DNA of 62,591 bases from Schmidtea polychroa (Eukaryota). The DNA is taken from contig CM097888.1 of assembly GCA_044892525.1 (NCBI GenBank), positions 6,883,410 through 6,946,000 on the forward strand. Direction: 5' to 3'. Below the pieces are notes generated by a model. The model was not told where the DNA came from. It worked only from the letters and a program-made list of their open reading frames with translations, and searched no databases. Position numbers and translations under genes: made by a program. Below, piece after piece: positions 21,096-62,591 of the stretch (position 1 is the first letter of the stretch; each line of letters opens with the position of its first letter).

Positions 21096-21234
21096 TTCTT
21101 TTATGCCCCCCCCCCTGGAAAAATTCCTGCGGACGCCCATGCTCGGATCCAATAAATATAGAAGGCCCTGCATTTATTGGATCCGAGCATGGGCGTCCGC
21201 AGGAATTTTTCCATGGGGGGGGGGCATAAAAGAA
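21096..21234. repeat. Near-perfect ~62-bp-arm fold-back made from a hAT-like terminus plus 16 bp of flank
   Basis: ttcttttatgccc...cctgcggacgcccatgctcggatccaataaat | 14-nt loop | atttattggatccgagcatgggcgtccgcagg...gggcataaaagaa. Confidence 0.9.
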
Positions 21235-22085: not shown

Positions 22086-22139
22086 GGGAATTTGAAAAAG
22101 TTCACAAATTTCATGAAGAGGAAACCAACAACAGAGATC

Positions 22140-22910: not shown

Positions 22911-22952
22911 CAATAACTGAGGTTTGCCACTAAAGTAGATTGGGTTGTTGAT

Positions 22953-23123
22953 CCGCTGGAAGGGATCAAGGAGGGGGGAAATGTTTCCGCCGATTTTGGC
23001 GTTTTTTATCGCGTCTGTGTGCGCGTTATTAGCAGACTGCTATTCGGAGTAGTGTGCGCACACAGACGCAAAGAGTTGGTATGTTTTGTTTTTTATATGG
23101 ATTGTTATTAATTAGTTTTTTAG
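22953..23123 (+). promoter_or_regulatory. Cassette module copy C: imperfect hairpin (22953-22992), perfect 14-bp inverted repeat (23011-23024/23056-23069) and mini-intron (23079-23123)
   Basis: gcgtctgtgtgcgc/gcgcacacagacgc; TG|GTATGT...TTTTAG|A (45 nt); ATG at 23200. Confidence 0.8.
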
Positions 23124-23199
23124 AATTGATTTATGTTTCTATTAGAAACGAATTTGTTTTACCAGGAGATTTCGTTGGAAAATATAAATTTTTGCTAAA

Positions 23200-23301
23200 A
23201 TGGCTTCAGGTGTTAAATGTGATTCTTTAGTGGAAGAATATCTTAATTAAATTGAATTTCAATATACGATCTTTGGATTGAATAAACTGAAGGATAGAAT
23301 T
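23200..23301 (+). pseudogene. ADF/cofilin N-terminal fragment with an in-frame stop at codon 17
   Basis: [26 protein letters not shown] matches the cofilin start MASGV..D plus Y.IF. Confidence 0.65.
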
Positions 23302-23487
23302 ATTCAAAAAGAATCTACTCTCTATTTGGTTTTGAGATTACGAGGTGGCATGCAAATATTCGTGAAAACTCTCACTGGCAAAACGATTACACTCGAATTT
23401 AAATCAAGCGATACTATTGAAAATGTGAAAGTAAAGATTCAAGACAAGGAAAGAATTCCTCCCGATCAACAAAGACGAATTTTCGCT
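23302..23487 (+). pseudogene. Polyubiquitin fragment spanning a unit-to-unit junction
   Basis: [16 protein letters not shown]|[16 protein letters not shown]...DTIENVK.KIQDKE.IPPDQQR.IFA. Confidence 0.95.
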
Positions 23488-23661
23488 GAAACTGGGGAAT
23501 TTGGTACTTCTTATGAAAAGTTCAGATTACACATGATCGAAACATATGCTAAAGGAGGTTGCTATGCATTATATGACTATCAGGGTACTTTGGCGTTTAT
23601 TTAATGGAAACCAGAAACAATGAAAATCAATAATCGTATGATCATGGTTTCTTCAAAATCA
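23488..23661 (+). pseudogene. ADF/cofilin central and C-terminal fragment with an in-frame stop at 23602
   Basis: SYEKF...CYALYDY...LAFI*WKPETMKINNRMIMVSSKS matches cofilin cRYAlYD..., W.P......kM..aSSK. Confidence 0.7.
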
Positions 23662-23664
23662 AAG

Positions 23665-23790
23665 ATTGCAACCAATATCTATTCAAAGAGTCATATTTCT
23701 GCTTCAAGGGATAAATCCATGATTATTTGGGATGACCTTGAAGATGAGGCTGCTATGTCAGATGATGGTCAATTTGTATTGTCTGAGTCA
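23665..23790 (+). pseudogene. RACK1: RACK1 (WD40) N-terminal fragment with internal deletion
   Basis: IATN...ISASRDKSMIIW...SDDGQFVLSES compared with RACK1 IATTP...ILSASRDKTIIMW...SSDGQFALSGS. Confidence 0.7.
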
Positions 23791-26160: not shown

Positions 26161-26560
26161 ATCCATAGGTAATCGAATGGGAAAGGAAATTATTCACGAG
26201 AATGAAGACGCATACTAACGTCACAATAATAAAATCATCCAGAGACGAGACTAGTGCACACTAAGGACTTTAAAATCCACAAATGTCTCAGTAATTATAT
26301 TTACGGTCGCGCTATTTATACAAATTTTTCATACTTGTCAGCTGGTTTAAAAAATATTATATTATTATTAAATCATTACAATTATTAAATCATTACAATT
26401 GATTAAATTATTGCAATTGATTAAATTATTACCAGTTGATACTATTATTGTTATATCATTCATGATTATGAAAAATTCTATTAATTCGTATCATATTAAA
26501 AATTATTTTATAATATTGATTATATATTAAAATCGATTTGTCATCAAAAATTGTTATTAT
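26161..26560. repeat. Interspersed repeat copy; a near-identical copy at 28573-28890 interrupts Rep copy 1
   Basis: ccataggtaatcgaatggga...gaatgaagacgcatactaacgtcacaat...gtgcacactaaggactttaaa...ttacggtcgcgctatttatac shared between the two sites. Confidence 0.85.
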
Positions 26561-27739: not shown

Positions 27740-28400
27740 AGCATAATCTTGTAGTACCTGATTTCGTGTTGGTGGACGTTTAAATGTTTTCACAATTTTC
27801 CTAACTTTTTGTATAAGCGGGCCGAGCTGATTATGGTTTAAGTCAATATCTCGTTCTCGCCCCTGTATATTGTATCCCATTACTAAGCCATCCTCTTAGT
27901 CATCTCCTTCGCTAGCATATTAAATATTGCATTCTTTAGTTTCAGAATTTGAATTCATGTAAATTGACTCATTCGAACTATTGTTTGTATCTTCGGTTGT
28001 ACTTGTTTTATGTAGAACATCGACGACCGCAAGTTGTATCGCATGAGCCAAACATAATTGCTGAGCAGCCGGTACTAATTTGCCTACTTTTTTCATAACT
28101 GATGCACCATAATTTATTAAACAAATGATATTCTTCTCTAAAGACAAACCATAATGATTCAATTTACTGCAGGTAAGCTTCCATTGATGCGTAGAAGTCC
28201 TAAATTCCAAAAACAATTTTCCGAATGAAGGTTAATATTTATGTATCGACGATTTCTTAGAGAGGTTCACTCATCGAAAGTAATACTAAAACCATTGCCA
28301 TTTAATTTACGATCAGATATTTTATTAATTTATAATTGACGTATTTTTTGCAGTAATCAATGACAATTTTTCTAATATTGTTGGCTGATTTTGGTAGCTC
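27740..28400 (-). mobile_element. hAT transposase catalytic-region remnant
   Basis: GASVMKKVGK...QQLCLAHAIQLAVVDVL (CxxH motif) and IQKVRKIVKTFKR.P..N.VLQ.Y. Confidence 0.8.
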
Positions 28401-28403
28401 ATC

Positions 28404-29470
28404 CACTTTCTTTTATGATGTTCTGATAAAGCTTCTCTTCCCCATGTATTCGTCACAGAATTGCATTTTTTCTGGTTTCTGGCCAAGCTGGGTTTATAAT
28501 GTTGCCGAGTTCATTTCCGAGTACGATTCTCTTTAAACCTGCTTTTAATATATCAGTCCCGTATTTTACATTCCATAGGTAATCGAATGGGAAAACAAAA
28601 TTATTCACGAGAATGAAGACGCATACTAACGTCACAATATTAAAATCATCCAGAGAAGAGACAAGTGCACACTAAGGACTTTAAAACCCACAAATGTCTC
28701 AGTAATTATATTTACGGTCGCGCTATTTATACAAATTTTTCATACTTGTCAGCTGGTTTAAAAAATATTATATTATTATTAAATCATTATAATTATTAAA
28801 TCATTACAATTGATTAAATTATTGCAATTGATTAAATTATCGTATCATATTAAAAATTATTTTATAATATTGATTATATATTATATATTACAATTGCACG
28901 ACCACTAATCGTCAATTATAATGCCGTCGTAATCACTTTTTCTGACTCCAATTTGCCGAAATCTTGGCGAATAGTGATATGCAAAGTGACTTAAAGCAAA
29001 ATTAGTTTTTTGCCTGTGCTTGTTTCACCGATGATGACAATAGTTCTGTTTGCAATAGGAATTTTTCGAATAACCCACTCGTCATTGAATTTTGGTTGAG
29101 TCACGACACCTAATTTCCTGTAATTTAGAACTCGATTTATAATTATATCTAATACTTTGACAAATAAATTATCCGAGCTTTGTTCCCATTCGAATGAAAT
29201 CAAACGGTTTCGCCCAAAAATCTTCATCGGGTATCGGTCGTTTGGTGAATTTGTAGAAATAACCATTGGGAACTGTTGTGTGAACTTTGAGCACATAATC
29301 GAGACAAACCATCATATCTTTATATTAGAACCCCGCCACCCATGACACTTCTGGATTTTTTTTTAATGGTCAGTAATTAGTCGAATTTTTGAGTACTTCC
29401 ATGGCCTCCTATTTCTTGCCTGAGAACAACATTTTTGCAGATTTTTTCGAATTGTATTATTAAATTTTTC
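28404..29470 (-). mobile_element. CRESS-DNA-virus-like Rep (HUH endonuclease + SF3 helicase) remnant, copy 1, interrupted by a repeat at 28573-28906
   Basis: VVLRQEIGGHGST (pre-motif-II-like), CLDYVLK (YxxK), IVIIGETSTGK (Walker A, frameshifted), DYDGIIIDD (Walker B), NVKYG..LKAG..RIVLGN (B'/C), NAIL*RI (Arg finger with CGA->TGA). Confidence 0.8.
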
Positions 29471-33714: not shown

Positions 33715-34390
33715 TTATTCGTTTAGAATATTTGAGAATGCTCCACTTTCTTTTATGATGTTCTGATAAAGCTTCTCTTTCCCCATGTCATATACATGGA
33801 TTGGTCACATAATTGCATTTTTTCTGGTTTCTGGCCCAGCTGGGTTTATAATGTTCCCGAATACCAGTACCGTATTTTACATAATTCGATGTCGAATAAT
33901 TCATATCGAATTAATTAATTCCTCTGGCTCCCATTTGTAAATCGTCTATTATGATGCCGGCGTAGTCACTTTTTCTGGCCCCAATTTGCCGAAATCTTGG
34001 CGAATAGTGATATGCAAAGTGACTTAAAGCAAAATTAGTTTTGCCTGTGCTTGTTTCACCGATGATGACAATAGTTCTGTTTGCAATAGGAATTTTTCGA
34101 ATAACCCACTCGTCATTGAATTTTGGTTGAGTCACGACACCTAATTTCCTGTAATTTAGAACTCGATTTATAATTATATCTAATAATTTGACAAATAAAT
34201 TATTCGAGCTTTGTTCCCATTCGAATGAAATCAAACGGTTTCTTTCAAAAATCTTCATCGGGTATCGGTCGTTTGGCGAATTTGTAGAAATATCCATTTG
34301 GAACTGTTGTGTGAACTTTGAGCACATAATCGAGACAAACCATCATATCTTTATATTAGAACCCCGCCACCCATGACACTTCTGGATTTT
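33715..34390 (-). mobile_element. CRESS-DNA-virus-like Rep remnant, copy 2; cargo of cassette D
   Basis: NPEVSWVAGF*YKDMMVCLDYVLK (motif III), RTIVIIGETSTGKTNFALSHF (Walker A), YAGIIIDDL (Walker B), WEPEELIN. Highly similar to copy 1. Confidence 0.82.
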
Positions 34391-34505
34391 TAAATTTTTT
34401 GATATATATATATATATATATATACAAACACAAATGTTCCATTTCCTTTTGACGATTCCAATTTCGAAATTCCCTGATAAAGCAACTCTTAACTAAAGTC
34501 TAATT

Positions 34506-34632
34506 CTACAATTTTCAATAAAAAACAACTCAATTTTTTATTACAATAAAAATTACCCATTCCTCGCGTCTGTGTGCACACACTAATACGACATAGCAGT
34601 TTAACAATAACGCGCACACAGCCAGTCAGAGG
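34506..34632 (-). promoter_or_regulatory. Cassette module copy D, partly deleted: mini-intron (34556..34506), inverted repeat and one hairpin arm
   Basis: ctcgcgtctgtgtgcac...gcgcacacag|ccagtcagagg. Minus strand GG|GTAATT...TTGTAG|A (51 nt). ATG at 34442 is in frame with Rep motif III. Confidence 0.75.
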
Positions 34633-35933
34633 GAGATATATACGTTGTGAGGGTTGAGCCTTATTTTATAAAACACGAAGTGTCCGAACCACCGACTAGT
34701 ATTATCTATTTAATCTAAACCCAACAATATAAATATTTATGGTTGCTTGCATTGCATCTATGTTGATAGGGAGAAAAAGAATTGTGTTGTGGGAGAAGAT
34801 TGGTTAATAAAAAACATATTTACATTTACTCATTATATTCAATTCATTGTAAGTAAATCAGAAAAAATTAAAAACCAGAAATTCCTTAACTTTTAAAAAA
34901 AATAATTATACATTAAAAAGACTGCCACTCTCCAGGTGATTACATTGTCAGGAGTGTAGCTATCTCGATTTTGAACCTAAGTTCTCTGTGGTCACGTATA
35001 TAATATGTTTAGTTTCTGGCTCATATTGAAAATATAAGTTATTTGAAATAATCCACTGACCCGGAAATTTTTATTGTTATTTCTTAGTCATAAGAAGTCC
35101 AACAATTAAGGTTACACGATTAGGCTCGTTTCTGAGATAGTTTCTCGCTACCGATCCATTTTCGAAGCATAATATCTCGTAATAATTTGCACTAATTCTT
35201 GAGTATGTCGACATTTACACTCTGAAATGTGATTCGCACTTTCACCAAGTTCAGTGGCTTCCAATATATATTGATTCTAATTATTACTGGTTCTATTTCG
35301 ATTATCTCGTTCTTAACTCTTACTAGCACTTTCTGAAAATTTTCCAGACTTTAATTCGAATTTATGAATCTTTTATCGATTTTCATCAATTCATCTTTTT
35401 TGTGCTATTCTCATATACTACACATTTTTTTCTTCGCATTGCCACTTCTCTCCTTGACCAATCTTACACCTGTCCCATTCCTTTAATTACAAATATAATT
35501 TAATTTTCATAATTTCATAACCCCAACAATGTGAACCAGAGTGAACATGTAAGAAAACATACGGTATTAGAGCTATTTCTAGTGTTGAAAACGAAAAATT
35601 ATATGCATTTATTGGACTTCTATATGCACGCAGCGCAAATGAGACTAAAAATATGGATATATTATATTTATGGAATAAGAGATTTTTCGCGACAATTATG
35701 AATCGAAATCACTTTACTAAAATCATGAGATTTATTCGGTTAACATAAGTAAACGAATCCATCTCTTACAAAACGATAAGTTTGCTTTGATCTCTGAAGT
35801 TTGGTAAAGATTTATCGATAATAATTTCCAACATAAGCTCATTTTATATTTACTCAATAAATGCTCAATAAACCTGACAAATTTGGCATACAATTCTGGT
35901 TGGCTTCCGATGTAGGTAATAAGAATAGTTTTG

Positions 35934-40100: not shown

Positions 40101-41745
40101 CACTTTTGCTTATTCTATTTCTACTTTATCCGTTGTATATTTTAGATCGTTTCCCTTTTGCCTTATTCTCAACATTTTAGGGGTTTTATTTATTTGGTTG
40201 CTTATTCTTATTCTTTTATTGATATTTTATTGTTTCTCCCTATTTACTACCGGGATTTGGTGGTAATTTATTTTTTATCCTATTTCATTTAATTTTTCCC
40301 GGGGTTCGTTCCCTATTTGATCCAGTTTTCGCCACCTCCACATTTAGCCCAACAAATTTACAAATGATCATTTTATCAATGTATAGAAGAAAAATTCAAG
40401 ATACGGATTTATTAATCCCTGCTGTTTATCTCAGCGTGCAAGAGATCGATGGCTCCTGTGTAGCACAACAATCGTAAAGTCGATGAAAGAATTGGTTAAG
40501 CAAGTGGGATTATTTTGGGGCTCCCAGGGAACACGAAAGCAGCTCAACGTACTTTGTGTTCGCTTAATTTAATAATTTGCAATTTACCCAAGGATAATAA
40601 TTTATCCTCCAAAAATTCTTTACCTGTGAAACAATCTGTAGTAATATTCAAAGTCGTAATTTTCTTTGACTGCAATATTTCCTGGAATTCTCTTCTCTCT
40701 CAGTCTATTTACAATCGCAAATTTCTCCAATTTATACTCTGTTCAAATCAATTGGTTACACTGATCGAAATGTTGATTCAATCTGTTGATTGAACTAATT
40801 TGTTTAGTTAATGACAATGTAATTCTCCTTCGACTAAAGTGCAAGTAATTTCCTCAATTGATAACGTTTTTCCATCGTTCTACTATTTTTAGTTTCTCTT
40901 GCAAATCTCCAAATTTTGCGTCCTAAATTGTTCGTCCCTGGTTCTCATTTTGAACCAGTATTTATATTATAATATAATTATTTATAATATTAATAGTAAT
41001 TTTATAATTACTATTTATAGTATTAGTAACATTAGTTGTTACTAATTATTGCTTATTTTTATTTAAGGTATTTAAATGTTTATATTCTATTTTAAGTAAT
41101 TTGTTGTTTTATTGTTCCAAGCTCCAGGCCTATCCCTAACAAGTCTTACCCCCTAAAAGATTTTCGTCTCGAAAACAAGATAAGTAACCCTAAGAAAGAC
41201 TTTAAATAAAATTACAATAAAATATAAAAATTTATCAGATATGACAAATCAACTTCAATTATCTACACAAAACCATAAAACAAATGTCTCAAATCACAAA
41301 TAACTGGATCATTAATGTAAAAAGTTGAATAATCACAATGTCAAATAACTGGATAATCAAGTCAATTTATATACATGAATGAATTCGACGATAACTGTTG
41401 AGAGGCAACGTTCTCTGATTAGATATCCAGATCGTCGCGATCTGGTTCTGGGATGTTGTAAAGGTTTAATTCCATTCTGCTGTTGCCATTCGCAATAACA
41501 TATTGCTGCTGCAGCTTCTTTTTCCTCTTCTGCAAGACTTCTGGCTAAAAACTCACTGCCAAAGCCTTACCATCCAAAGTGCTTGTTAATATGACCGTAG
41601 ACACTAAGTAAGGGATTCCGTCTACGTCATATGTATCATACTTTTGGTTGTTGTTTATTACCATTCTAGTGACTGGTAGGCAGTCATACTCTTTGGCCCT
41701 GGGTTTCCATTTACTGTCCAGTTACGAGGAAAGACACATCCAATT

Positions 41746-42610
41746 CCGGTACCTCAAGAAATTTTCGATCAAATGGGAGAGGCACGATATTTCACAGTTA
41801 TTGATTTAAACAAAGGATACAATCAATTTAGAATAAAAGAGGAAGATAGAGAAAAGACGGCGTTCTCTGATGGCAAAGAACTTTATGAATTCAATGTGTA
41901 GCCCGAGCTACATTCCAACGAGGAATGAATTCTGTGTTACGAGGTATTCGACATGCATTGGTGTATATCGACGATATAATAATATTTTCAAATGAGTTTG
42001 AAGAACACCTCAAAGATGTAGAAACCGTATTTAAACGGCTCAAAAGTGCAAAATTAAAAATCAAACCATCGAAATGTGAATGGGGCAAAGCAGAAGTAAT
42101 TTATGTCGGACATATAATATCACGGCGAGGGTTACAAACTAATCCAGATAACATCAAAAAAGTGGAAGAGTACCCATTACCAAAAGATGCCGATGAGGTC
42201 AGACAGTTTTTAGGTTTGGCTAGCTATTACAGAAAATTTATGAAAGATTTCTCTCATATCGCACAACCATTGAATACGTTACTAAAGAAAAACAATAAAT
42301 TTATTTGGGGACAAATGCAACAAAGCGCTTTCAATACATTAAAAGAGAAATTAGTTACAACTCCTATATTAAGATGTCCAGCACCGATGGAGATGACGGC
42401 AATAGATATTCTGGGACCATTACTGGAAACAAAAGGAAACAAATACATTGTTGTTTTTTGTGACTATTTTACTAAATGGCCGGAAGCATACGCTATTCCA
42501 AACCAAAAAGCCGACACGATTGCTAGAATATTTGTGGAAAACATAATATTTCGCTATGGTACTCCAAAGAAATTGCTAACTGATCAAGGGAAGAACTTTC
42601 AAAGCGTGAA
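41746..42610 (+). mobile_element. Ty3/Gypsy pol remnant: RT joined directly to the integrase core, RNase H deleted
   Basis: YFTVIDLNKGYNQF..EKTAF, PATFQR, YIDDII, FLGLASYYRKF, then AIDILGP...DYFTKWPEA..TDQGKNF. Confidence 0.92.
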
Positions 42611-45600
42611 GCGGATTTTATGATGTTTCGGATGAAGGTAGAAGTGTCGAAGAAATCGGAGGATGAGGGTGAGCTCAATCAATTGAATTAAATAAATTAT
42701 GCGAACGGACCTTGTTTTTTTCGTCCTCGGAAAATAGAAAATAAATAAATTAACAAATAGATAAATTGATTAAATAAATAAATTAACAAATATATAAATT
42801 GATTAAATAAATAAATTAAGAAATAGATAAAGTGATAAAAAGAAAAGGTTAATGTGTACGTAAATAAGTGAACAAACAGATAAATGAACTAAATAACTAA
42901 AAAATAAATAAATAATTGAGTAATTCAGTAAATAAATAAAGTAAAATGAGCAAATAAAATAAATAAATGTTATAAATAAATGACTGCCAATTGATAAATA
43001 AAGTAATAAATAAATGACTGACTAGTAATTGATGAATAAATTAACATAACTAAATAACCATGGGTAACCTACTGGGGCGGGAGAATAAAATTATAACCAA
43101 TAAATATTAGTTAGTAAGTAATAGTTTCATAGTAGCTTCAATTCCCAGTAGGAACAAAGGCTAATCAGGAAGAGGAATACAACTATCCCAATAGAAATAT
43201 TATCCAAAATAAAAACAAATGTATGCTGAATATTTTATTCATTAGAGTAAAATTTTTATTGTTCGTCATCAGAGTCCAGCAAAATAGGACTTTGGATACC
43301 ACAGTCCTATTCCTTGCGTATATTGCAAGGTGGGCGTCTCTCGAGCCTGTTGGACGTATCCACGCAGGCCAAGGTGCACTTTAAGCCCTTTCGACTCGGT
43401 GGTAAAGGGACCCTGAAAAATGAAAATAAAAACCTGTTAGCATATCAGTCAAGTAACCATTCCACAACATCCAGATGTTCAAACTTGGGTGCCGTAACAA
43501 CCTAAATTAGTAATAGTTGAAAAAAAATGAAATAAAGACTATTTAAAAGTCCGTAGCATGGCGCCCTCGATATATAGTTAGTTGCAGAGAAATAGTACAT
43601 CTTTATGAATTACGTAATAAATACTAAATTAAAACAAGTTCAATTTGTTGAAAATACAAATACCTAAGTATGAATACGGTTAGTAGTGATAGGAAAAATG
43701 CAAGATTTAAAATAATAATTATTATTGGGAAAATTACTAAAATCAATGTGAAATGTTTTTAATGTGTTCTCCAAAATAAAAAGCGCCATGAAAGGGTATA
43801 CTTGGATTTTGAAAAATTTTGACACATAGTTATATCATTGGCAATTGAAGTAGCATCATTGAATAGAGTACACACCACTTTGTTTACACATATAAGAATG
43901 ATATCATAAAAGAAAAATAACCCCCCAAAAAAAATTAATAAAAGAAAAAATTTCTGTCTAAAAATGAATAGAATTCTCAGTTACCTATAATATACTTTTT
44001 TTATATATCATTTATTTTCCCCCTTTTTTATGGAAAATATTTATTGAGTGTATCGGTAGATATTGAGAATTTACTTTATCAAAAAAAATATAAATTAATG
44101 AATAAAACAAATTTATCGTAGTTTTCGACATTATTTCCTTTGTCTGCTCTTTTGCAGGCTTTGATGTGGATTTTTCTGCATTTTGTGGCATGCAATGATC
44201 TAGAAACGGTAAAACAATATCATCTTTGCAAGCTACCCAAATGAACTCACTTAAAACAATCGTGCATTTAACGTCATTCCTCGGTAAGAATTCGATATCG
44301 CTAGGGCCGATATTAAATTGAGACCCAAAAAAGCTAACTGAATTTATTTAAAAATATCCTAGCTAACGATTTATAGTAAAAAATAAATGAAGACCTGAAA
44401 ATCCAACCGAATTTATTAAAGAAAAGGCGACTACAGCTAACAAATTATATCAAATGTTGACACAAACTAAGTTTATGAAAAATTACAATCCGAACTGGTC
44501 CCTGAATATCTATCTCATTATATCGATGTAAAGAAAATAAAAGATTTGCGTTGTGTTATACGTTCCTCCTGCAAGACCGGTATCTCAGAAATCTTAAAAT
44601 TACCGGTTAAATGATTATTTGGGTGAATACAGATTGGTAACATTATACTGACAGTAAATAGGTGATTTAAACACCCTAGATAAAATTTTTAATTTTTATT
44701 ATTAATTAAAATCGTAATTTGAAAAGGAAAAGGAATCTGAATAAGTAAACCCAACTTTAATTTAATTTGGATTCGTCTGAATTATAATTTTAAAAAATTG
44801 TAGAATTGTTCGATCATACCAGCTGCAGCGAGGAAGACCAGGAAAAGGAGTGATTACCCAACTCAGGACGAGGTACAGAATAAATTTTTATTATCTACAT
44901 GTGGATGCATGTGTATAGCCATCCATAATTTCTTTAATTTACAGTATTCAAATTATTCGAGAACCTAAGGAGGGACCGGGAGCAAGCCCAGCAACAGGTG
45001 GAGGGTCTCCAACCCACAGTCGCGAAACTTAGAGGACGATGTCTGGAGCTCGAAAGCACTTGGTTCAGCCTGGCCAAATTGAAAAATCGAATGATTCAAA
45101 TCCAACAATTTCTGTCTCAAGTAGACCAAGATCAAACCGAAATCCGCGCTCTATAGATTCAAATACGCACACTAGAGACCCAACTGAACCAGCGGTTCAT
45201 CAACACGGTGGTAACCGCACAAATCCGACTACTGCCAACGGAGCTGACCGAAATTTATCCACTGGCTCAGATGAGTAGATCGAAACGTAAACGGTTGGGG
45301 CGCAACACTCGAGAAAAACAGAACAGGATCAGATTAGCGGAGCAGAGGCACGGGGAGAATCAGGGCTCACCCCAAACATAAAACGATTTGTAATTAGACA
45401 TGTATCCGAAATAAATAATTTGATGAATTGTTGTGGATCTTGACGTGTTTGGTGTTTGATTGATCAAAGAACGAGCAAATATTTGGGAAAGAAACTAAGA
45501 TGAAGGACCAGAGCAAATCGGCCACATCTTCTATCGATAGTCCATGAACCCAAGGAGTGCCTGACAATTATAGTGCAAATTATTCGCTCACTTCTTTCGA

Positions 45601-47792: not shown

Positions 47793-47920
47793 CGTCTGTG
47801 TGTATTTTGTAATAGGGTTGTTGTGTGTATTGTATCTGTTTGTATTTAACTTTTCTCACCAAATTCATTTTTCTGCCTTTCTATAGTAAATGCCCGTAAT
47901 ATATGCCAGTGCTCTTAATA

Positions 47921-48168
47921 CACCCATACCTCGCTATACGGCCGCTCTTTATACGGCATTTCGTTATAACGGCCCTCTTCAATTAAGGTACGTTTTCGGT
48001 TTACGGCCTAAAATGTTTCGCTATAACGGCAAAAAAACTTTTTCTCGATGTCGATATATCTACATGTTGCCAATCTTATGCAAGCGCAATCTCGATTCCT
48101 TATACGGCTTTTCGCTTTACGGCCAAGTTTCGTGGAACGTATCTAGGCCGTAAAGCGAGGTGTGGGTG
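47921..48168. mobile_element. Tc1/mariner-pogo-type MITE with TA TSD
   Basis: TA|cacccatacctcgctatacggcc ... ggccgtaaagcgaggtgtgggtg|TA. Confidence 0.85.
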
Positions 48169-48206
48169 TATTTGTCATTTTTTCAAGTGTTCATTTTTTC
48201 TATATA

Positions 48207-48422
48207 CCGTATTTTAGCGCATATAACGCGCACATTATACGCATTTTTACAAACCGTGCACCCCCCATGCGCGGTATCTGTGGGTGCGCGCTTTATGATT
48301 TATATTTTACACGTGGCGGCATTGCCAGTGGAAATATTTTTATGATGTGACAGTAACCCTACAATCGGTTTTATTGTTTATTGTAATCAGATACCGTGCG
48401 CGTTATATGCGCTAAAATACGG
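48207..48422. mobile_element. Tigger/pogo-like MITE with TA TSD
   Basis: TA|ccgtattttagcgcatataacgcgcac ... gtgcgcgttatatgcgctaaaatacgg|TA (27-bp TIR). Confidence 0.88.
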
Positions 48423-49240
48423 TATATATATAAGAATTATGTCTTAGAGTATTTCTTAATTTATTGTTAAATGTACCATAATTTATGCGCCTTAGTGTAT
48501 CAAAACTGTGTCATATATGGGAATGACGTCATTATTTATCTGTCAATTATATATATACGACATGGCCTCCCTAAAGAGCTACAGTGATACGCTTGAATGA
48601 CACGACCCGCAATGTCTTAATAATTATAGTTCTAAATTATCCGTTCACATGACAGTCTTCACCCTTTGGATTTTTCTATATTTATCTCAAAGATTCTTGA
48701 TTAATGCCCAAATTATTATATATTTAATAAATTTGATTAATTTATCATCTTGGTATCACTAAATGTTTATTTGAATTTAAATTTTGAAAGTAATTTTAAA
48801 GAATTATTTCATTTTTTCAATTTCTATTTTTTGATTTCTAGAGTTAATCTATTTATCAGATGAGTGAATCGTGCGTAAAACAAGCATGTCAAATGGGAAA
48901 TTTACTGACTGTAAAAATATCGACAGGACACTCTTACACATATACATTTTATATCCAGTAACTTTGAAAAGTGTCTCAAACTGTAGAATAAAAACATCAA
49001 TCTAGTTATAGCGAAAGTTTTATCCAATACAAAATAACATTTATTTAACCAATAAAGACAATATGTTAATTGCGAAATACAAACAAATAATTTTTGGTCA
49101 GTGTTTCTAAAATGTTGAAAATAGTCTTCCTTGTGGTCCATACATTTTTGCAAACGTTTTGGAAGTTGTTTTATGATCAGCGCCGTGAAAAGCCTAGCCA
49201 GGCCCTGGTAAAATGATTAACGCGGGCCTTTTATCGATTA

Positions 49241-49469
49241 CACTCATACCTCGCTATACGGCTGCTCTTTATACGGCTTTTCGCTATAACGGCCTACTTT
49301 AATTACGGCACTTTTTCGATTTACGGCCTAAAATATTTCGTTATACGGCTAAAAATCCTATTGAATTTATATGGAATTGTATCAAAATGTATTTGATTCG
49401 TTATGCGGCGTTTCGCTTTGCGGCCAACTTTCCTGGGACGTATCTAGGCCGTAAAGCGAGGTATGAGTG
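49241..49469. mobile_element. Second copy of the 47921-48168 MITE family
   Basis: TA|cactcatacctcgctatacggc ... gccgtaaagcgaggtatgagtg|TA. Confidence 0.88.
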
Positions 49470-49956
49470 TATTATAATATATTTTAAATATAAATTGTTG
49501 TGTTTTGTTTGTATGCAAGCATACTTTTGGTTGAACGGACAATTGGTTTTTTTGCAGAAATCTAAATCCCAGAGAGTCTAATGTTTGTCTTTCTAAATTC
49601 GATTTTTCCTTCTTTTCCTTGGCAAGTTTTCGTTTTTGGGCTCTAGATTTATGCTGATAACTCATTTTTAGCTTTTGTTATCAATGATAAATAATTAAAT
49701 TATTTAATGCAAATAGTTTGCCAAATAGTAAAATTAGGGATACTTACAAAATCTAAATTTCGATCGATTAAAACTGTTTTATGATTATAAAAACAAAACT
49801 CTTACTTTTTTCTCTGAAATATAGCTGTAATAGATTTACTTAGGCTCAAGGGAAAGTAACGATAATTTTAAACTAAAACTCTAGCCGACACCGTAAATTA
49901 AAAATATATAGATATAACTTGATAAAATTTGGTGTTGTCGAAAAAAAACAGGTTTA

Positions 49957-50054: not shown

Positions 50055-53000
50055 TACACCTAACTGCGAAATATAACATTATCTATAATCTAAAAAAAAA
50101 ATCAATAAATATATATTATAGGAACACACAAACTTACCTGTGTGTAGAAATTTAATGCTGCAAAATTTAACATATTTATTATAGGAATCTAAAAAGTGAG
50201 AGAAAATAATTAAGCATACAAGCACAGCACACATAATGAAAAATACATACAAAATTAAGTAAAGTGTTTTTCATGCGAAATATACATTGATTAACATATA
50301 ATTAACATATCAATATTTTCAAATTATTTAAAAAGTTATGTACAAAAAAACTTTTGAATCAGATTCTGACTGCTCTACCTTGAGCTTTATTGAAAAAGAA
50401 GTAAATACATCGTAAGATTTAATTATAAAATAATTTAGAATATAAATTTCTTTAGATTTACAGATATTGAAGAAGATCCTTCGACATCTTTGAATTTGCA
50501 GGAAAAAAATCGCAAATCGTAAATTTTAATAAATTATTTTAACAAATTAATATTTTCATAGAATTACAGAAATAGACAAAATTCGAAAGAAGATTACAAA
50601 AACTTAAAAAATATTTTATCCATTCTTTACTAAATGTCTTTAAAAAATAAATGTTTGGTGATTACTTTACATATTTACAATTATAAAAATATCTAACTTA
50701 CATTTTTACGAAATAAATCCAAATAAATTCAAATCAAATACCATAAAATTCCTAATAAAACACCTGAAATTTAATTATCAATGTTATATATTATCAATAT
50801 TATAAATGCTGACTAACAGTAATATTTAAGAACTTGAATAATGATCTCATAATTATATAAAATCAAAATTCAAGTCCTAAAAATTACTTCAATTCAAAAA
50901 CTTACCTTAAAACGATTTTTGAAAAATTGAAAAAATGAAATTAAGTTAACATTGTCATATAATTGGTGACTCACCTCAGGTGGTGTGCACACCGACGTAT
51001 ATTATAGACAATGTTAACTTTCGCTGTTAGGTGTAAATCTGATTTTTTTTCGACACCTTTGCAAAAGAGAAGAATAGACATGTTCTATCTAGTTACTTAT
51101 AATCTCTGACCGACACCGACAATTTTTCATTTTACATACTCACAGGAAAAAAATAGCGGTGAAATCCATTGATTCAAAGGTTTTCTGAAAATCTTTAAAA
51201 AAATTTTAAATCAATGAATTTTTCATTAATTTGAAAGTTTTCATATTTGATTTGATGTTTAAAAGAGAGTAAATACATCATTTCACAGTTGATTTGAATT
51301 TGAAAAAATTAAAAAATCATCATTGTTAACAATCGAAAAACCGTTGATTTACCATCTGAAAAGTAAATCAACAGTTGTAATTTTTGTGTGTGTAGTTTTC
51401 AAGTTTTTCTGTTACGATTAAAACTTTTAGTGCACCTCTCCGGGCCCCCTTTCAATACCGGGCCCCGGGAAAAATACCCGTCTCCCCCTCTCTTCGGCCC
51501 TGTTCTGTGCGCTCGAATGTTATCTTGAAGGAAATGGCAATTTTCAAAACTGTTTCCGTGCAGTCAACGCCTTTTTTGTTGACACTCGTATATATATATG
51601 ACGTATATATTTATTTTTTAATCTTTTTTGTTAGACGTTTTTCAATATTTGTCTTAAATTAACTTCCCAAGGTTCGAGTGTAGGACCAAGTATAGGTCAC
51701 CTTCATTATGACAAAGAGGTTTTTATCAGTTTTCTTTATTCTGCGAATTGCTTTTATTAAGTTTCCTATATGTAAACAATTGTTCGCTCTAATGTCTTTA
51801 CCAAAAGTAACAGCATATATGTGGCAAACCTTTTAAATGCTTTGAATTTTTGTCAAAAATAATAATGTATGCCTTGGATTCTAACTTTTCGATATTTTTT
51901 ATTTTAGAATTGAATTATTCAGCTATAATTGTAATGAAATAAGGGTTAGGGTTATAATGGTAGTCTTAAGGTCCTTATCCACAATTTTCTAATTAATATT
52001 GCATTGGTATTCCTTCAGTTTTGGTCTATCTGGATACAAATTTTCTGACTTTGCTACCGGTCAGGCATAAATATTTTATCCTTAACTGTCATTGTTTATC
52101 TTTTATTGAATGGTTTTGATTGTTTTTTTCTTAAATAGCTAATTTTGCAACCCTTTCTCATAGTTTATTTATTGCTTTTCATATATTTTGTACATAAATT
52201 CTTTTAATTCCTAAGTGAAGTTTTTAAAATTCTTATCTCTAAGTTTCCCTTCAAAACAAAAATGCTAAATCTATGACCAGCATCATACAGATTATTTTAT
52301 TACAAATGATACACAAGATATTGTTGCATTTTCAGAAGTAATTCAATTTCCATCTATCTTTAATTTGTATTTTCCGATTGACTTCGAGAGCGACATTTCC
52401 TTAATAAAAATTTAGTCAAAATATAATACTACTTACGCGTATTTGTCAGCAACCACGCACAATTCAAAATAAGAATGTATTGCTTTTGTAAGCTTTTATT
52501 GTAGCAGAAAACTACGTATAAATAATATAATTTTTCCTAAGTGCATAAAGGATTGATACAACCCCCAATAGCCCTACCTTTGCTAATTCTATCACATTTG
52601 TAAAATTTCAAAAATTTTTAAAAATATATTTTATATATTAAATATTAAAGAAAAAATATTCTAAAATATGCAACTTTNNNNNNNNNNNNNNNNNNNNNNN
52701 NNNNNNNNNNNNNNNNNNNNNNNNNNNNNNNNNNNNNNNNNNNNNNNNNNNNNNNNNNNNNNNNNNNNNNNNNNNNNNNNNNNNNNNNNNNNNNNNNNNN
52801 NNNNNNNNNNNNNNNNNNNNNNNNNNNNNNNNNNNNNNNNNNNNNNNNNNNNNNNNNNNNNNNNNNNNNNNNNNNNTAGATAGCTATTATATTCTTATCC
52901 ATTCTATATATCGGCCACTAGGTCAAAGAACCCAACTAAAGCGCACTGCCAAATGTATATAAATTTAATTCCTTCACTTTGAAACACCAATATAAAATTT

Positions 53001-57333: not shown

Positions 57334-57440
57334 GCTCGCGTTTGTGCGCGCGTTCGGTTTGTTCTTGTGTTTGCGTCTGTGTACGTGTTAATATTTATAT
57401 TATTATTTCAATTGATTTACTCGCGTCTATGTGAGCACGC
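57334..57440 (+). promoter_or_regulatory. Degenerate module copy F: three direct half-sites of the CGCGTCTGTGTG motif upstream of HSP90
   Basis: ctcgcgtttgtgcgcg, ttgcgtctgtgtacg and ctcgcgtctatgtgagcac, then a T-rich leader with ttggaatttcgaa words, then ATG at 57683. Confidence 0.5.
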
Positions 57441-57682
57441 CTTCTTGAATTACTTGTTTTTCTTGTACAAGGAATTTTTTTTGTTATTGGGTTTTGCTTG
57501 GATTTATTTATTGGAATTTATATTTCTGGATTGTGCTCGAATACTGTTTGAATTTGGAATTTCGAAGAATTTTGTGGATTTTTTAATATTTTGTTTTCAA
57601 TTCGTGAATATTTAAATTTTGCTTGATTTTTTTGGAATTAAATTGTTGGAATTTCGAATTTTTCTTCGATTAAATTGAAATA

Positions 57683-57887
57683 ATGAATGACTCTGAGTCG
57701 TTTACATTTCAAGCAGAAATCGCTAACAGTTGAGCGTTATTAACGATTCTTTCTATTCCGACAAAGAAATACTTTTGCGTGATGTGAATTCAAATTCTTT
57801 TTTGGATACAGTCAGAGTTTATGAGTAGTATATAGTGAGGACTCCAACGCACTTTCAAGGTCATCCCAATGTTCAAATCAAATATTG
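57683..57887 (+). pseudogene. HSP90: HSP90 5'-end fragment, frameshifted
   Basis: MNDSESFTFQAEIA, then QLSVINDSFYSDKEILLRDVNSNS.LDTVR, compared with [43 protein letters not shown]. Confidence 0.85.
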
Positions 57888-58631
57888 ACCAATCGAATCT
57901 TTTTAATTTAAATTTTATTTAATTACTTTTATTTAATTATTTAATTCATTACATTTTATTATATTTTTATTATTATTTGATTTTAATTAATATTTTGTTA
58001 ATTTTTAATTTATTAATTAATTGATTCATTATGTTTATTATTATTTTATTTTANNNNNNNNNNNNNNNNNNNNNNNNNNNNNNNNNNNNNNNNNNNNNNN
58101 NNNNNNNNNNNNNNNNNNNNNNNNNNNNNNNNNNNNNNNNNNNNNNNNNNNNNNNNNNNNNNNNNNNNNNNNNNNNNNNNNNNNNNNNNNNNNNNNNNNN
58201 NNNNNNNNNNNNNNNNNNNNNNNNNNNNNNNNTATTTAATTATTTAATTAATCTTATTTATTATTATTATTTTTTTTTACATTTTTATTTAATATAGTCT
58301 ACCAATAACGTAAATTATAACAAGAATATTTCAATTAGAACAAATTTTTAAATAGTAATTATTCGATTTATTATAAAATAAAACGTCGAGTTATTTTAGA
58401 TAAACTGGGTATTAATTTTTCAGAAAAAAAAGTTTTTCATGAAAATAATTATTCTTACTTAAAACTAATTATCTAAATTAATTGGACAAATGAATTATTA
58501 AATGATAAAACACATTTTAATTAACTAAGTCAAATTATTCACAATATATATTTTATTATTCACATAAATTTAATTGTTAAAGTGCTTGCTTCGATTTGCA
58601 TTCATTTCTAGACATAGCAGTTGCAATATGC

Positions 58632-60470
58632 ATTTGACGAATCTTATAGTGACCGTATGCATAGCTTTCATCAGAATTGAACCAATACCTTTTATCTTCC
58701 AAACATTGGAGAGCTCGTTTTTTTGTCATGAAAGTATACATGTGAGTATCTTATTCTTTTTTGTGGGATGCTCACTTTTCCACCATCAGTATTCACTTTT
58801 TTGTAAGCTTCATGTGTAAGATTAGAATTGGTAAGACTTATTCATTTGGCTTATAAAGTGTCTTTATCGCCTTGGAGTGAGTAGCACTTGGGTGGAAGGA
58901 ACACCCATTCCTTTTATTGATTTCCTTTATTCTTATCCTTGACTTTCCCGATTACAGAACAAATTTTATCTGAGAACAATGGATCGGTCACTGGATAATT
59001 TGAAGTATCTAGGAGCCCATCGGCAATCATTTTTGGATACAGCTGTAAACGTAAATCAACATTTTTACATTCTAAAAAGAAAGAATCTGTGTCACCGGCT
59101 AAGATATTGATTTGACAATTTAACTCTTCTCTATAACTCTGTAGTTCTTTATATTGAAACCGAAGTTTAAGTACCGTTTGTCCAATATACATTGTTCTAT
59201 CTAAACTAGTGGCCTGCCGAACTTTGATTTGAACTTCTATTCGGACCAAAGTTCAAACACTTCGGAAACTTCGGACTTCGGCAATACGATCCAAATAGTG
59301 AAATTTTGCTTGAGCGATAATAAATTATTATTGTTCCGTGATTATTTATTATACTTATTATTATTTATACTTATTATAAAATTATATAGAAATAATTGTG
59401 TCATTTTTCTGTCATAAAATTGTGTCTCATAAATGAATGATTTATTCATTAGGTAAAATATTAGACTGAGCAGAACTACCAGTTGAGCATCCGATTCACT
59501 TTCCACATCATCACATGCGAAAATCTCCATAGCTCCATACCCCTCCCCAGTGTACATAATATATATAAAAGCCCATCAAATTTGAAATCGAAAATTTTAA
59601 ATATATTTCTTTAACAAAATTAATAAATTAGTTTAAATATTAAAAATAAATGAAAGTAATAAATATGGCTAATGCTATGAGAAGTAAAATTTGGAATTTC
59701 TTTGAAATCAACGCTGTGGATGAATCTTTTGCTAACTGTGGGACATGCAGAATGAAAATGAAACGTGGCGGCAAGGATCCATTTGAAGAGGAAACGCGGA
59801 ATGCTAGTTTGTCAACTGCAACAAGCGGAATGATTATTCCAAGTGTGCGTGTACTTCAGGTAGTTTTGACGAGACCAGCAAAGGAGGGTGACGACCTCTG
59901 CATTCAAACAATCGATGTGGTCCGTTTTGACTACTAATAAACTAATGAAGATGTATATATTTATATAAACACATGTATTTTTTTATTTTTTCGTTTCACG
60001 TTACTTTGCTTGTTGCGAACAGATCTATGTTATATAATTTACATCCATGTTTCAAAAGACAACAAAATGAACACTTCTCAATATCATGTATTATCACCCA
60101 TTGTATAATTTTTTCAGTTTTATTGACGATTCATTTTAATAAATCGCCGTAGGTCATTGCAGTAGGTACAGGTCCCTAAATTATTTTCACGCACCAGACA
60201 TTTGATTCGACTTCGGCTTCGGCCAAATAGTAATTTAAAAATTTGAACTTCGGACTTCGGCAAAAAAGTCACTTCGGCAGGCCCTTAATCTAAACACACC
60301 ATTTCTTTATCGAGTATAAAAGCTATGAGGTCATCCGCAATCTTGATGCTACGACGAAACATAGGATGACTACAATAAGTTATCATTCTCTTGCTTTTGT
60401 TGCATAATCTCAAGTTTATACGTTCTTCAGGTTTTCCACGGTTTTACCGTATAAACTGTTGAATAAGATC
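58632..60470 (-). mobile_element. Polinton/Maverick-type protein-primed DNA polymerase B C-terminal remnant, split by a hAT insertion
   Basis: NSLYGKTVEN (60460-60431, motif B), HPMF..LD|RTMYIGQTVLKL, GDTDS (motif C), LDTSNYP...GKVKD, KCYS, EDKRYW...YAYGHY. Confidence 0.85.
59207..60287 (+). mobile_element. Non-autonomous hAT element (1081 bp) with BED zinc-finger remnant and 8-bp TSD atctaaac
   Basis: atctaaac|tagtggcctgccgaa ... ttcggcaggccctta|atctaaac. ORF 59650 contains RSKIWNFF....ANCGTC; subterminal cttcgg repeats. Confidence 0.92.
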
Positions 60471-60499
60471 CAAATAAATCATTAAAATTTTATTCTTTA

Positions 60500-61014
60500 A
60501 CACTGTCATTTTCATTTCCCCGTCTGCATTGCTGCTATCAATCCAAGGAAGAGCTTCGATAAGTATTTCCTCATTGCAAATTGTGCTTTCATTTATTGCT
60601 TTCGAAGCTTTCATTTTACTGTGCTCAACAACACTTGAATTGTCGAATAATAAAAATCGACACTTTCTACATTTGAATTGAACTAAATCTTTTGAAGATG
60701 CTGATAACTTAAATTGAGCTTGAGAAACTGTATTTGCGCATTTGTTGATTTCATCACTGCAATTCATGTTGAAATATATCTTTAATTGTTTCATGAATCC
60801 ATCATTTGGACATATAAATGACTTTTCCTTAATTGTCTCAATCGCATCGTTTGGACCAACTTTAAAATGTTAAATAAGCCGTCAAAATAATTCCACTTCT
60901 TGATATTCCACCAAATTTTCTGCCATTTTCAATGAATTCACTGGTTTCATCGAAATAAGAAATAAGATCTTGGCTTGGAACATCATAAGCTTTAATAAAT
61001 TTGTAATCAAATTC
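60500..61014 (-). pseudogene. DUSP12: DUSP12/YVH1-like dual-specificity phosphatase fragment lacking the catalytic HCxxG segment, frameshifted
   Basis: FDYKFIKAYDVPSQDLISYFDETSEFIENGRKFGG|ISRS..LTAYL, ICPNDGFMKQL, and C-terminal zinc domain FKCRKCRFLLF...EH...IEALPWI. Confidence 0.8.
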
Positions 61015-61056
61015 TTCTTCTTCAACTGAAGGATCACATTTCACACCTGAAGCCAT
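61015..61056 (-). pseudogene. ADF/cofilin start fragment (MASGVKCDPSVEEE) fused in frame to DUSP12
   Basis: aaaATGGCTTCAGGTGTGAAATGTGAT is nearly identical to 23200 aaaATGGCTTCAGGTGTTAAATGTGAT. Confidence 0.65.
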
Positions 61057-61144
61057 TTTTAAAAACAGGAATTTACAAATTTTGATTCCAACTCCACTTT
61101 CGAACATTTACACATTTCAAACAAAAAACCAAATTCTAGAATTT

Positions 61145-61329
61145 CTACAATATCAATATAACAATCAATTCACAAAAAAAACACAATTAACAATTACCTA
61201 CAATATCAATCCATTGCTCGCGTCTGTGTGCGCACACCAACAATATTCGGTCTAACCAGACCGCGCACACAGACGCGATAGAAAAAAAACCGAATAAATG
61301 CCAGTCAGAGGCAATCCCCCTCTGACTGG
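61145..61329 (-). promoter_or_regulatory. Cassette module copy E, the only ungapped and undegraded copy: mini-intron (61197..61145), perfect 16-bp IR (61218-61233/61263-61278) and perfect 11-bp hairpin (61301-61329)
   Basis: tcgcgtctgtgtgcgc/gcgcacacagacgcga; ccagtcagagg-caatccc-cctctgactgg; AG|GTAATT...TTGTAG|A (53 nt). Confidence 0.85.
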
Positions 61330-61555
61330 TCGAAACAACTGTAGTTCTTTAACTTATAATAATCTCGCTAAAATGAATCTATACTAGCTGCTCTCATTTG
61401 AGTACTGTAATCAATATATCCTTTGAAAATAGCGACTTGCTTGAATTCTACAGCGCGATTAACTTTTGTGACTTTTGCACCGTAACTCAACCATTCCGTC
61501 AAAACTCTACTATTAACTACATAGTTATTCTTAGGTTCGTGTGATTACTTTAATG

Positions 61556-61755
61556 ATTAAAATTATTTCCGATAAAGATGCTGGAACTTTAAATATTAAT
61601 GACAATGGAATCGGAAGGACAAAGGCAGATTTGATCAACAAATTACAAACAATCGCTAAATCTGGAACTAAGGCATTCATGAGAGCACTTCATGTTGGAG
61701 ATAATTTTTCAATGATTGGACAATTTGGAATAAGCTTCTACCCATCTTATGGAGT
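61556..61755 (+). pseudogene. HSP90: HSP90 ATP-lid fragment
   Basis: [65 protein letters not shown] compared with [55 protein letters not shown]. Confidence 0.92.
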
Positions 61756-61937
61756 GACAGAAATCATCCTTACTGATGATAATCTAATCGTCAGAACTAA
61801 GGGGCCTCGTACATTTTAGGGGGCCCCGTTTTGATATAAAGTATTTTAATGTAAAAGGTTAAATGTGTAAAAAAATATAATGAAAATGAAGAAATAAATA
61901 AAATCTAGTAACGCACAGCTTAATTGTTCCAAAGTTG

Positions 61938-62462
61938 TACTAAATATTGTGTAACTCCCTCTATCCCATACATTTACTGTATTAAATAGTTTAAAGTAGA
62001 CTATATTATAATCAGTTGAGTGGCTCGCTTGGTGATGCATCGCGTTTCTTACTTACTATAATTATGAAGGTTGCCAAGTGCGTGTATACGACTCATTAAT
62101 AAAGATTGACGTCATACAAGTATTTATTATTTGCAAAAATTGTGTTAATTGCAAGTTGAATTCAGATTTGTTGGTGAGCTAAATATTCGTTATAAGATTA
62201 TAGCAGAAAGCTACAACAATAAACAACAGACGATATCAAATCATTAACTCAGAAATTTGATCCGGCTTTGATTTAATGCTGAGTATAAATAGTTGAGAAA
62301 GATACTCACCCACAGATCAAGAAATTTAAACGAAACTCGGAATTTGTTAAAGAGTAGTCTAGTAAACTAAATATTGTGTAACTCCGTCTATCCCATGCAT
62401 TTACTGTATAAAATAGTTTAAGACACACTATATTATAATTAGTTGGGTTGCTCTCTTGGTGA
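61938..62462. repeat. Pair of ~100-bp direct repeats (61938-62037 and 62364-62462)
   Basis: actaaatattgtgtaactcc.tctatcccat.catttactgtat.aaatagttt...ctatattataat.agttg occurs at both sites. Confidence 0.8.
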
Positions 62463-62591
62463 TTTAGTATAAAACAACAGTATTTGTACCAAATTTTTTA
62501 GTATACTATATGGATCAAAACCAAGCACAGAGAAACATTAGAATTTGCAGAATATTTCGTTGGATTTATTTAAAAAAACGGCATTAAGTCT

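Follow-up and report, generated by a model that had tools for sequence, protein, structure and literature searches.

A hairpin and inverted-repeat module that very probably heads a cargo-carrying mobile family in Schmidtea polychroa

What accounts for a GC hairpin and a 14-16-bp inverted repeat that recur together at several places in an AT-rich stretch of the Schmidtea polychroa genome? The stretch analyzed here (62,591 nt of contig CM097888.1, hereafter the window) has a GC content of 30%, and a sequence-only reading of it had described a conserved tripartite module whose CpG-rich arms were taken to imply selection on a dimeric protein-binding site or cruciform, as in a replication origin or promoter. 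The module is real where that reading placed it but complete in only one of the five inverted-repeat copies, E, where a perfect 16-bp inverted repeat with a 29-nt spacer is joined through a 22-nt linker to an 11-bp hairpin. Copy E is laid out as follows:

61301-61329, minus strand: distal hairpin, 11 bp with a 7-nt loop, the sole complete one of its type
61279-61300, minus strand: linker, 22 nt, T-rich
61263-61278, minus strand: distal arm of the 16-bp inverted repeat
61234-61262, minus strand: spacer, 29 nt, of the subfamily shared with copy B, including a small inner hairpin that is not conserved across copies
61218-61233, minus strand: proximal arm
61145-61197, minus strand: intron-like stretch, 53 nt, GT...AG, with the putative splice donor TAG/GTAATT
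61054-61144, minus strand: C-poor leader with an ATG at 61054-61056

The proximal arm and the adjoining spacer edge contain a 12-bp palindrome, GTGTGCGCACAC, at 61226-61237. Folding of E yields z scores of -7 to -9.7 against dinucleotide shuffles; the strong stems fold on both strands, and the inner spacer hairpins differ copy by copy.

A scan with the arm pattern returned 13 matches in the window at up to three mismatches, against 0.05 expected. Twelve of them belong to six loci, A (727), B (5714), C (23010), D (34565), E (61219) and F (57337-57436), and the thirteenth (38334) is a GT-repeat match; a profile search of the window revealed no strong locus beyond these six. All of the evidence below comes from six copies within one gapped window, the remaining five of which are:

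565-823, minus strand: head of copy A, with a half hairpin at 799-809 that runs into gap 824-1541, arms at 725-741 and 762-778, an intron-like stretch at 670-718 and an ATG at 565-567
5578-5815, minus strand: head of copy B, with a half hairpin that runs into gap 5816-6581, arms at 5713-5728 and 5758-5773, an intron-like stretch at 5662-5705 and an ATG at 5578-5580
22948-23202, plus strand: head of copy C, with arms at 23010-23024 and 23056-23070, an intron-like stretch at 23079-23123 and an ATG at 23200
34440-34633, minus strand: head of copy D, with the proximal arm at 34563-34579, an intron-like stretch at 34506-34556 and an ATG near 34440
57337-57685, plus strand: degenerate head of copy F, with a long C-poor leader and an ATG at 57683, lacking the donor found 9 nt past the arm in other copies

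The proximal arms of the five inverted-repeat copies are 87-100% identical, as are the distal arms of A, B, C and E, so that the proposed near-invariance of the arms holds except for the distal arm of D (60-73%). The two spacer subfamilies were recovered as described, with 83% identity between B and E and 78% between C and D, against 38-62% in the remaining eight of ten pairs (shuffles, 42-52%), and within the window the arms are indeed more alike than the spacers and flanks. The hairpin, said to follow 20-25 nt away, does so in E, whereas that of C (22948-22969) lies about 40 nt from the arm; its different, 7-bp stem had been noted correctly, but its ATCCC sits at the stem/loop junction rather than at the end of the loop. 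In D, one hairpin arm is fused to a distal arm shortened to 10 bp, with loss of the linker, and the sixth locus, F, retains three half-sites (57337-57436) in direct instead of inverted orientation. The hairpins of A and B consist of one arm and the loop, and in each an N gap (718 and 766 nt, respectively) starts exactly after the loop sequence CAATCCC, a position that could reflect either stalled sequencing or an inverted duplicate that folds back. A perfect 20-bp palindrome is also present at 22899-22918, 30 nt upstream of the C hairpin.

Conserved arms do not in themselves demonstrate selection, as the common descent of a mobile family explains them without it. The argument from CpG content falls away in a window whose observed/expected CpG ratio is 0.97 and which is therefore not CpG-depleted, and the covariation proposed for the stems was absent from the arms, where 0 of 16 pairs carry a compensatory double change in a low-power comparison of five copies. 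On the same grounds, a conserved structured RNA was set aside. Rfam returned no match at gathering level across the whole window, and E-value scans of copies C and E turned up nothing but generic hairpins that scored far under the threshold; an HDV-like ribozyme was rejected for want of Rfam support, and a hammerhead because it had no Rfam match and all five loose matches to its core lay outside the heads and the cargo ends. A prokaryotic origin was likewise rejected, with no match to the arm pair in GTDB genomes or in phages and one short 78% match in plasmids that was judged to be chance.

In all five inverted-repeat copies, the module leads, with fixed polarity, first into an intron-like stretch that runs from GT to AG over 44-53 nt and then to an ATG. 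The GT lies exactly 9 nt past the proximal arm in four of the five (E has AT there and its donor at +22), and a T-rich stretch closing with TAG follows 44-53 nt later in every one; per copy, the probability by chance is about 0.02 for the GT and about 0.27 for the TAG, values that are not independent between copies because the copies are related. The ATG lies 122-162 nt from the arm in these five copies and 246 nt away in F. Neither F nor the continuation through donor, intron, leader and ATG featured in the sequence-only reading, whose start coordinate, 61145, is the acceptor of the E intron-like stretch, and its promoter option fits the fixed polarity, the fixed distance to the donor, the intron-like stretch and the ATG.

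The leaders are 4-8% C, and the words GAATT, TGGAA and TTCGA, picked post hoc, occur in them well above shuffle levels. Compared as wholes, leaders are weakly alike across different cargos, with z above 0 in 15 of 15 pairs (4.1 at most, for D-E, followed by 3.8 for A-B), simple identities near shuffle level, and the last 50 nt of C and E no more alike than shuffles (z 0.6). We infer that the leader is the element's own and that cargo is joined to it at the start codon. Three leader-like stretches (20081-20270, 51831-51970 and 10422-10571) were rejected as heads, having neither an arm nor recognizable cargo; the first of them, C-poor on the plus strand with GT runs, is possibly a decayed seventh head.

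The sequences that follow the start codons are as follows:

1-567, minus strand: cargo of A, an intact 188-aa ORF with an N-terminal RING-like motif (zf-RING_2, E 0.0025)
4672-5580, minus strand: cargo of B, the N-terminal half of Rab1, proteasome alpha-6 (PSMA6), MsrB and (AAT)22
23200-23790, plus strand: cargo of C, in one frame, a cofilin start, a polyubiquitin piece (about 23302-23487), cofilin again and a RACK1 piece
33742-34391, minus strand: cargo of D, a broken, partial CRESS-type Rep-like (P-loop) piece
61015-61056, minus strand: first cargo of E, a presumed cofilin-like start, so named from its 90% identity over 42 nt to the start of C
60519-61014, minus strand: second cargo of E, a DUSP12/YVH1-like piece in frame with the first
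58917-60518, minus strand: third cargo of E, a broken family-B DNA polymerase-like piece (Pfam E 0.14 only)
57683-57825, plus strand: cargo of F, a frameshifted HSP90 N-terminus (HSP90 family in 60 of the 60 matches listed, E about 0.02)
61550-61770, plus strand: next collinear HSP90 piece, beyond element E (chain 2qfo residues 14-44, then 60-132)

In three of the five inverted-repeat copies (B, C and E), the ATG thus opens an intronless, same-sense mosaic. In B, Rab1 passes in frame into PSMA6 near 5250, with MsrB from about 4972 and (AAT)22 at 4672-4737; the nearest named matches of the PSMA6 piece are from molluscs, an annelid and an insect, at 52-56% identity. In C, cofilin is left and re-entered around ubiquitin, the second cofilin piece giving no PDB match on its own and a Pfam match when read longer; the N-terminal 33 aa of cofilin alone gave no match. 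The DUSP12-like piece of E, 85-90% identical to P0001, carries in-frame deletions of 8 and 17 codons, the first of which removes the catalytic motif, and one frameshift, and the polymerase-like piece, which we take to be of Polinton type, is split by a hAT/BED insertion at 59207-60287 with a zf-BED match and an 8-bp target-site duplication, ATCTAAAC, at 59199-59206 and 60288-60295. The identity of the D cargo is indirect, resting on the matched P0042, which carries Gemini_AL1_M, groups with Cressdnaviricota Rep clusters and gave no match in plasmids. For the RING ORF of A, 0 of 66 candidate relatives passed E 0.01, and its atlas look-alikes, generic RING clusters with a low recognition score, were discarded. 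The first frame of the F cargo gave no HSP90 match on its own, and the collinear HSP90 pieces on both sides of E suggest that E inserted into the cargo of F. Two regions, 28328-29360 and 26162-26429, are head-less paralogous mosaics of the Rep-like cargo of D, with pieces 86-97% identical, the former interrupted at 29361 by a different repeat. A 98-bp direct repeat (61939-62036 and 62366-62463, 89%) closely follows the second HSP90 piece and might mark the end of the F cargo or another element.

All identified cargo pieces are sense to their head, including six of six non-first pieces (the polymerase-like one being weakly identified), and frame is kept at five of five scorable junctions, with two more unscorable, and across both long DUSP12 deletions; small frameshifts and stops are also present. 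Such frame-keeping does not show selection for translation, as codon-spaced similarity itself favors frame. About 2 kb of host coding pieces show no intron, while the window does contain a nuclear-receptor-like exon bounded by splice sites. Furthermore, head and cargo are uncoupled: B and E have a common spacer, yet carry Rab1 and cofilin, respectively, and C and E share a cofilin start under different head subfamilies.

At the far end of E, two further features stand out:

57898-58340, minus strand: A-rich tract, a candidate 3' tail, 64% A in 57900-58053 and spanning an N gap
57893-57897, plus strand: TCGAA, a candidate 5-bp target duplication, present again at 61330-61334, abutting the hairpin

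The candidate duplication, identified post hoc, was seen in E alone and has a chance of about 0.01 as estimated from 5-mer frequency; LTR retrotransposons leave duplications of 4-6 bp, and the other copies offer chance-level matches only (C, D and F) or are blocked by gaps (A and B). The 3' end of A falls outside the window. A sense-strand A-rich tract follows the cargo in four of five copies, clearly in B and E and weakly in C and F, and is absent in D. The arm scan and profile search detected no second head copy at the 3' ends of B, C, D and E, self-BLAST and head searches detected no terminal repeats bracketing any cargo, and the flanks at 57830-57897 and 61335-61549 gave no identifiable match. 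Shared distal ends among the cargos were considered and rejected, as their z scores reached 5.9 against shuffles but corresponded to 3-7% against the real AT-rich background.

We propose that the module is, very probably, the head of a cargo-carrying mobile family whose cargo was probably assembled through RNA. Judging from its layout, we also lean towards a promoter role for the head, and the whole chain, namely a non-autonomous element with a promoter/leader head, reverse transcriptase (RT) template-switched cargo and a Penelope-like retained 5' intron, strikes us as an evenly balanced proposition. The head, which spans about 270 bp from the hairpin and inverted repeat through the splice donor and a roughly 50-nt intron to a leader that ends at an AAATG-like start, would serve as an internal Pol II promoter and leader and probably also as a cis signal for copying. 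Head-driven transcripts would be reverse-transcribed in trans, with the RT jumping at short similarities between abundant mRNAs (cofilin, ubiquitin, RACK1, Rab1, PSMA6, MsrB, HSP90 and DUSP12) and also onto transposon- or virus-like RNAs, such that each copy would end up with a distinct, same-sense, intronless and mostly in-frame mosaic. The head would keep its 5' intron, as Penelope-like elements do, and new copies would integrate with an A-rich tail and a short duplication and then decay. The sequence itself displays the anatomy, polarity, cargo identity, frame, head/cargo shuffling and nesting; transcription, splicing, an RNA intermediate, template switching and the nature of the mobilizing enzyme are inferred from these. 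RT template switching predicts uniform sense, presumed intron loss, cargo from abundant mRNAs and leave-and-return mosaics. The putatively retained leader intron and the terminal palindrome resemble Penelope-like elements, but keeping such an intron is hard to square with an RNA intermediate that is spliced in the ordinary way. With no 3' head copy, no hammerhead or other Rfam family and no terminal repeats, the copies fit none of the end structures known from retroelements. A more demanding version, in which a high-copy, retroelement-like family without terminal repeats or coding of its own has as its one conserved part a hairpin/inverted-repeat promoter head with a mini-intron, refilled at the start codon with in-frame mosaics of the most abundant mRNAs that must stay translatable, seems to us doubtful.

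In the main rival reading, possible but unlikely, the module would be where a rolling-circle transposon (Helitron or Helentron/HINE), taken on the strand opposite to the cargo, has its 3' end, the inverted-repeat pair, a terminator hairpin and a CTRR-like or TT end closing an element whose antisense gene pieces were captured at the DNA level or as retrocopies and then amplified. The ends of E fit this reading as well as the retroelement one, in which the hairpin opens the element, the A-rich tail closes it and TCGAA is duplicated around it. Helitron1 elements begin with TC, end in CTRR about 10-16 nt after a hairpin and insert between A and T; Helentrons and HINEs have a stem-loop 8-35 nt from the 3' end and TT flanks, and make no duplication. 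On the other strand, E starts at its far end with A/TC (57898) and terminates 15 nt past the hairpin in a one-mismatch CTAG-like/T, and C does so 13 nt past its own (about 7% by chance for each); a TT at 8-35 nt from the stem-loop also fits E and C but has a 90% probability by chance, and an exact CTRR is found at neither end. All five copies have a TT no more than 2 nt from the proximal arm's outer edge, and the sole two exact matches to CTTTTTAATTTA, a post hoc observation, are at the far ends of B and E. The anatomy resembles that of mite HINEs, whose subterminal inverted repeats of 12-15 bp are accompanied by a palindrome and a 3' stem-loop (PMC4067079), and with the Helentron/HINE group as outlined there and in PMC5148889 it shares inverted repeats (here 15-16 bp), an overlapping palindrome, a hairpin about 22 nt on and a TT by the arm. 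Bat Helitrons show a preference for carrying promoters, 5' exons and retrogenes (PMC4224331), and the heads here similarly carry 5' gene ends. Nevertheless, both arms lie at one end, bracketing 20-32 nt rather than the cargo, with none at the far end, and similarity continues past the TT, the would-be 5' end, into the donor, intron and leader. End bypass, moreover, captures DNA 3' of the hairpin while the cargo here is 5' of it, 0 of 300 ORFs scanned gave a RepHel match, and the sense, in-frame, intronless mosaics are unexplained unless reverse transcription is added.

We consider it improbable that the module is instead a native housekeeping promoter architecture, with paired factor sites and CCAAT-like boxes, a short first exon and a small first intron, whose copies are DNA-level duplicates of gene 5' ends fused by microhomology repair. 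Four of the six heads (B, C, E and F) do open onto the genuine start of a conserved gene, the direct half-sites of F are as expected of an orientation-independent factor site, the ORF of A is intact, and the hairpins contain or adjoin CCAAT or a variant differing by one base, presumably a link to NF-Y. On the other hand, cofilin starts occur under two head subfamilies with unrelated leaders, the 83% spacer identity of B and E spans different genes, and the 59.5 kb of the window that are sequenced hold six copies among the remains of transposons (matches to BED-finger, gypsy-type RT/integrase, piggyBac-like and Tc1-like sequences). In addition, the one related promoter motif compared, the planarian initiator (PMC10558129 supplement), has no match in the arms and shows only weak enrichment in the leaders (3 versus 0.6 expected at two mismatches, 9 versus 4.4 at three).

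The replication-origin, cruciform and Rep-binding part of the earlier proposal, under which the module would be an origin with iterons bound and nicked by a CRESS-type Rep and the family a Rep-driven replicon, is more improbable still. CRESS-DNA origins carry a NANTATTAC-type nonamer at the hairpin apex, and although the spacer of A includes an 8-of-9 match to the nonamer, the stems are strong on both strands and a Rep-like cargo lies just downstream of head D, none of 28 matches to ANTATTAC falls within a module. The missing covariation and the direct half-sites of F point the same way. The piece behind D is broken, partial and one of six first cargos, Rep is represented in the window by broken partial pieces only, and the 96% paralogue of the D piece at 28.9-29.4 kb is head-less. 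A solo MITE, about 130 bp long and inserting near gene starts, with a secondary association with cargo, would suit the size, inverted arms and high copy number; it is largely refuted within the window and very unlikely overall, as 0 of 6 copies occur without leader and cargo, polarity is fixed, the arms have no flanking duplication and similarity extends past them. Assembly chimeras, for which one could invoke the gapped draft with its 10 N runs, two of them abutting a hairpin, are barely credible given the divergence of the pieces (85-90% to P0001) with their stops and deletions, the nesting that includes an hAT insertion with its own duplication, and junctions far from gaps.

With a cargo-carrying mobile family as the favored reading, the module was compared with known systems and is not assigned to any named family, as none has all of its defining features here; in the proposed chain it would behave as a template-switch chimera equipped with a leader of Penelope type. 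The head has no description in the literature searched, with Repbase and most subscription journals lying outside that search, and the arm sequence is absent among the papers listed; the head may already be catalogued as an unclassified repeat. Penelope-like elements carry a hammerhead ribozyme in their repeat, absent in some clades, and a non-autonomous member would have an autonomous RT-GIY-YIG partner with the same cis unit. In contrast to them, the cis unit here is not repeated as a 3' pLTR or in partial tandem and no hammerhead was found. The likenesses are a putative short 5'-leader intron retained over an internal promoter in the 5' UTR, as in Penelope, Chlamys-3 and Adineta Pen3a (PMC2377424, PMC8557442, PMC3846280), a palindrome at the 5' end of a cis unit of about 200 bp (the pLTR), host genes mobilized in trans (PMC3846280) and fold-back ends that break assemblies; unlike the single intron-containing gene of Adineta, the cargo here is intronless and multi-gene.

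Template-switch chimeras of several genes have been reported for two other retroelement classes (PMC5131818 and PMC2104539). LTR-mediated chimeric retrocopies, including the maize Bs1 cited in the former, are similar in joining same-sense partial mRNAs into in-frame fusions, in being driven by an element promoter and in being re-amplified as non-autonomous units; the cargo here differs in having no flanking LTR pair or retroelement ORF remnants, and the head in including an intron-like stretch and meeting its cargo at the start codon. Template-jump chimeras made by LINEs (Magnaporthe WEIRD/MGL, U6-L1 type; PMC2104539) likewise fuse a common non-coding 5' piece to other transcripts, and the candidate tail and short duplication of E recall theirs. 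The cargo here, unlike theirs, lacks a LINE 3' end and runs to up to four pieces, and its 5' piece contains an intron-like stretch; with respect to LINE/SINE-type intron loss, the coding pieces are uninterrupted and the leader stretch is kept. Pack-MULE and Pack-TIR elements, bounded by terminal inverted repeats and a target duplication, are also non-autonomous units with host gene pieces (PMC8277862), but here the cargo has no surrounding terminal inverted repeats and looks spliced rather than genomic.

Retrocopies are usually promoterless, and transposons that capture genes tend to pick up fragments of genomic DNA irrespective of frame; here, by contrast, one shared head equips spliced-looking, in-frame mosaics of several genes with promoter-like sequence, an intron-like stretch and a start context, and the copies are locally dense. 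If the translatable-mosaic version were true and the density of six in about 60 kb genome-wide, the family would act as a permanent source of exon shuffling, supplying chimeric ORFs that come with a promoter, among them possibly the intact RING ORF of A, and the element may be a route to new fused genes. If confirmed, the copies would offer many natural replicates for two questions: by what mechanism retroelements that keep an intron are copied, and how frequently expressed chimeric genes arise from template switching. Chimeric housekeeping pseudogenes can be expected to contaminate gene predictions for this genome.

Other features of the window deserve mention. An exon-like ORF at 1583-1945 on the plus strand, which has no Pfam match and which we take to resemble a nuclear-receptor ligand-binding region, is directly followed at 1982-4538 by an array in which a 30-bp unit occurs 85 times, with 94% matches and no stops in several frames, and a long CAA-rich degenerate tandem array occupies 6838-7789, just past the gap of B. 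Remnants at 10485-10916 (minus strand) and 18109-18793 (plus strand) show, by eye, CxxC between GIY- and YIG-like motifs and are presumably of the Penelope-type GIY-YIG endonuclease-like kind; neither has a Pfam match or an adjacent head. Just upstream of head C, 22029-22819 on the plus strand contains CCHC-knuckle-like and coiled-coil-like ORF pieces that look gag-like by eye and have no Pfam match. An internally deleted gypsy-type RT/RNaseH/integrase remnant (Pfam RVT_1, rve) lies at 41680-42623 on the plus strand, and a small MITE-like palindrome at 21096-21234 has 52-bp arms (98% complementary) around a 14-nt center. Finally, 47919-49473 holds a repeat family that has inverted arms of 43 bp (48196-48433) and a second copy at 78%.
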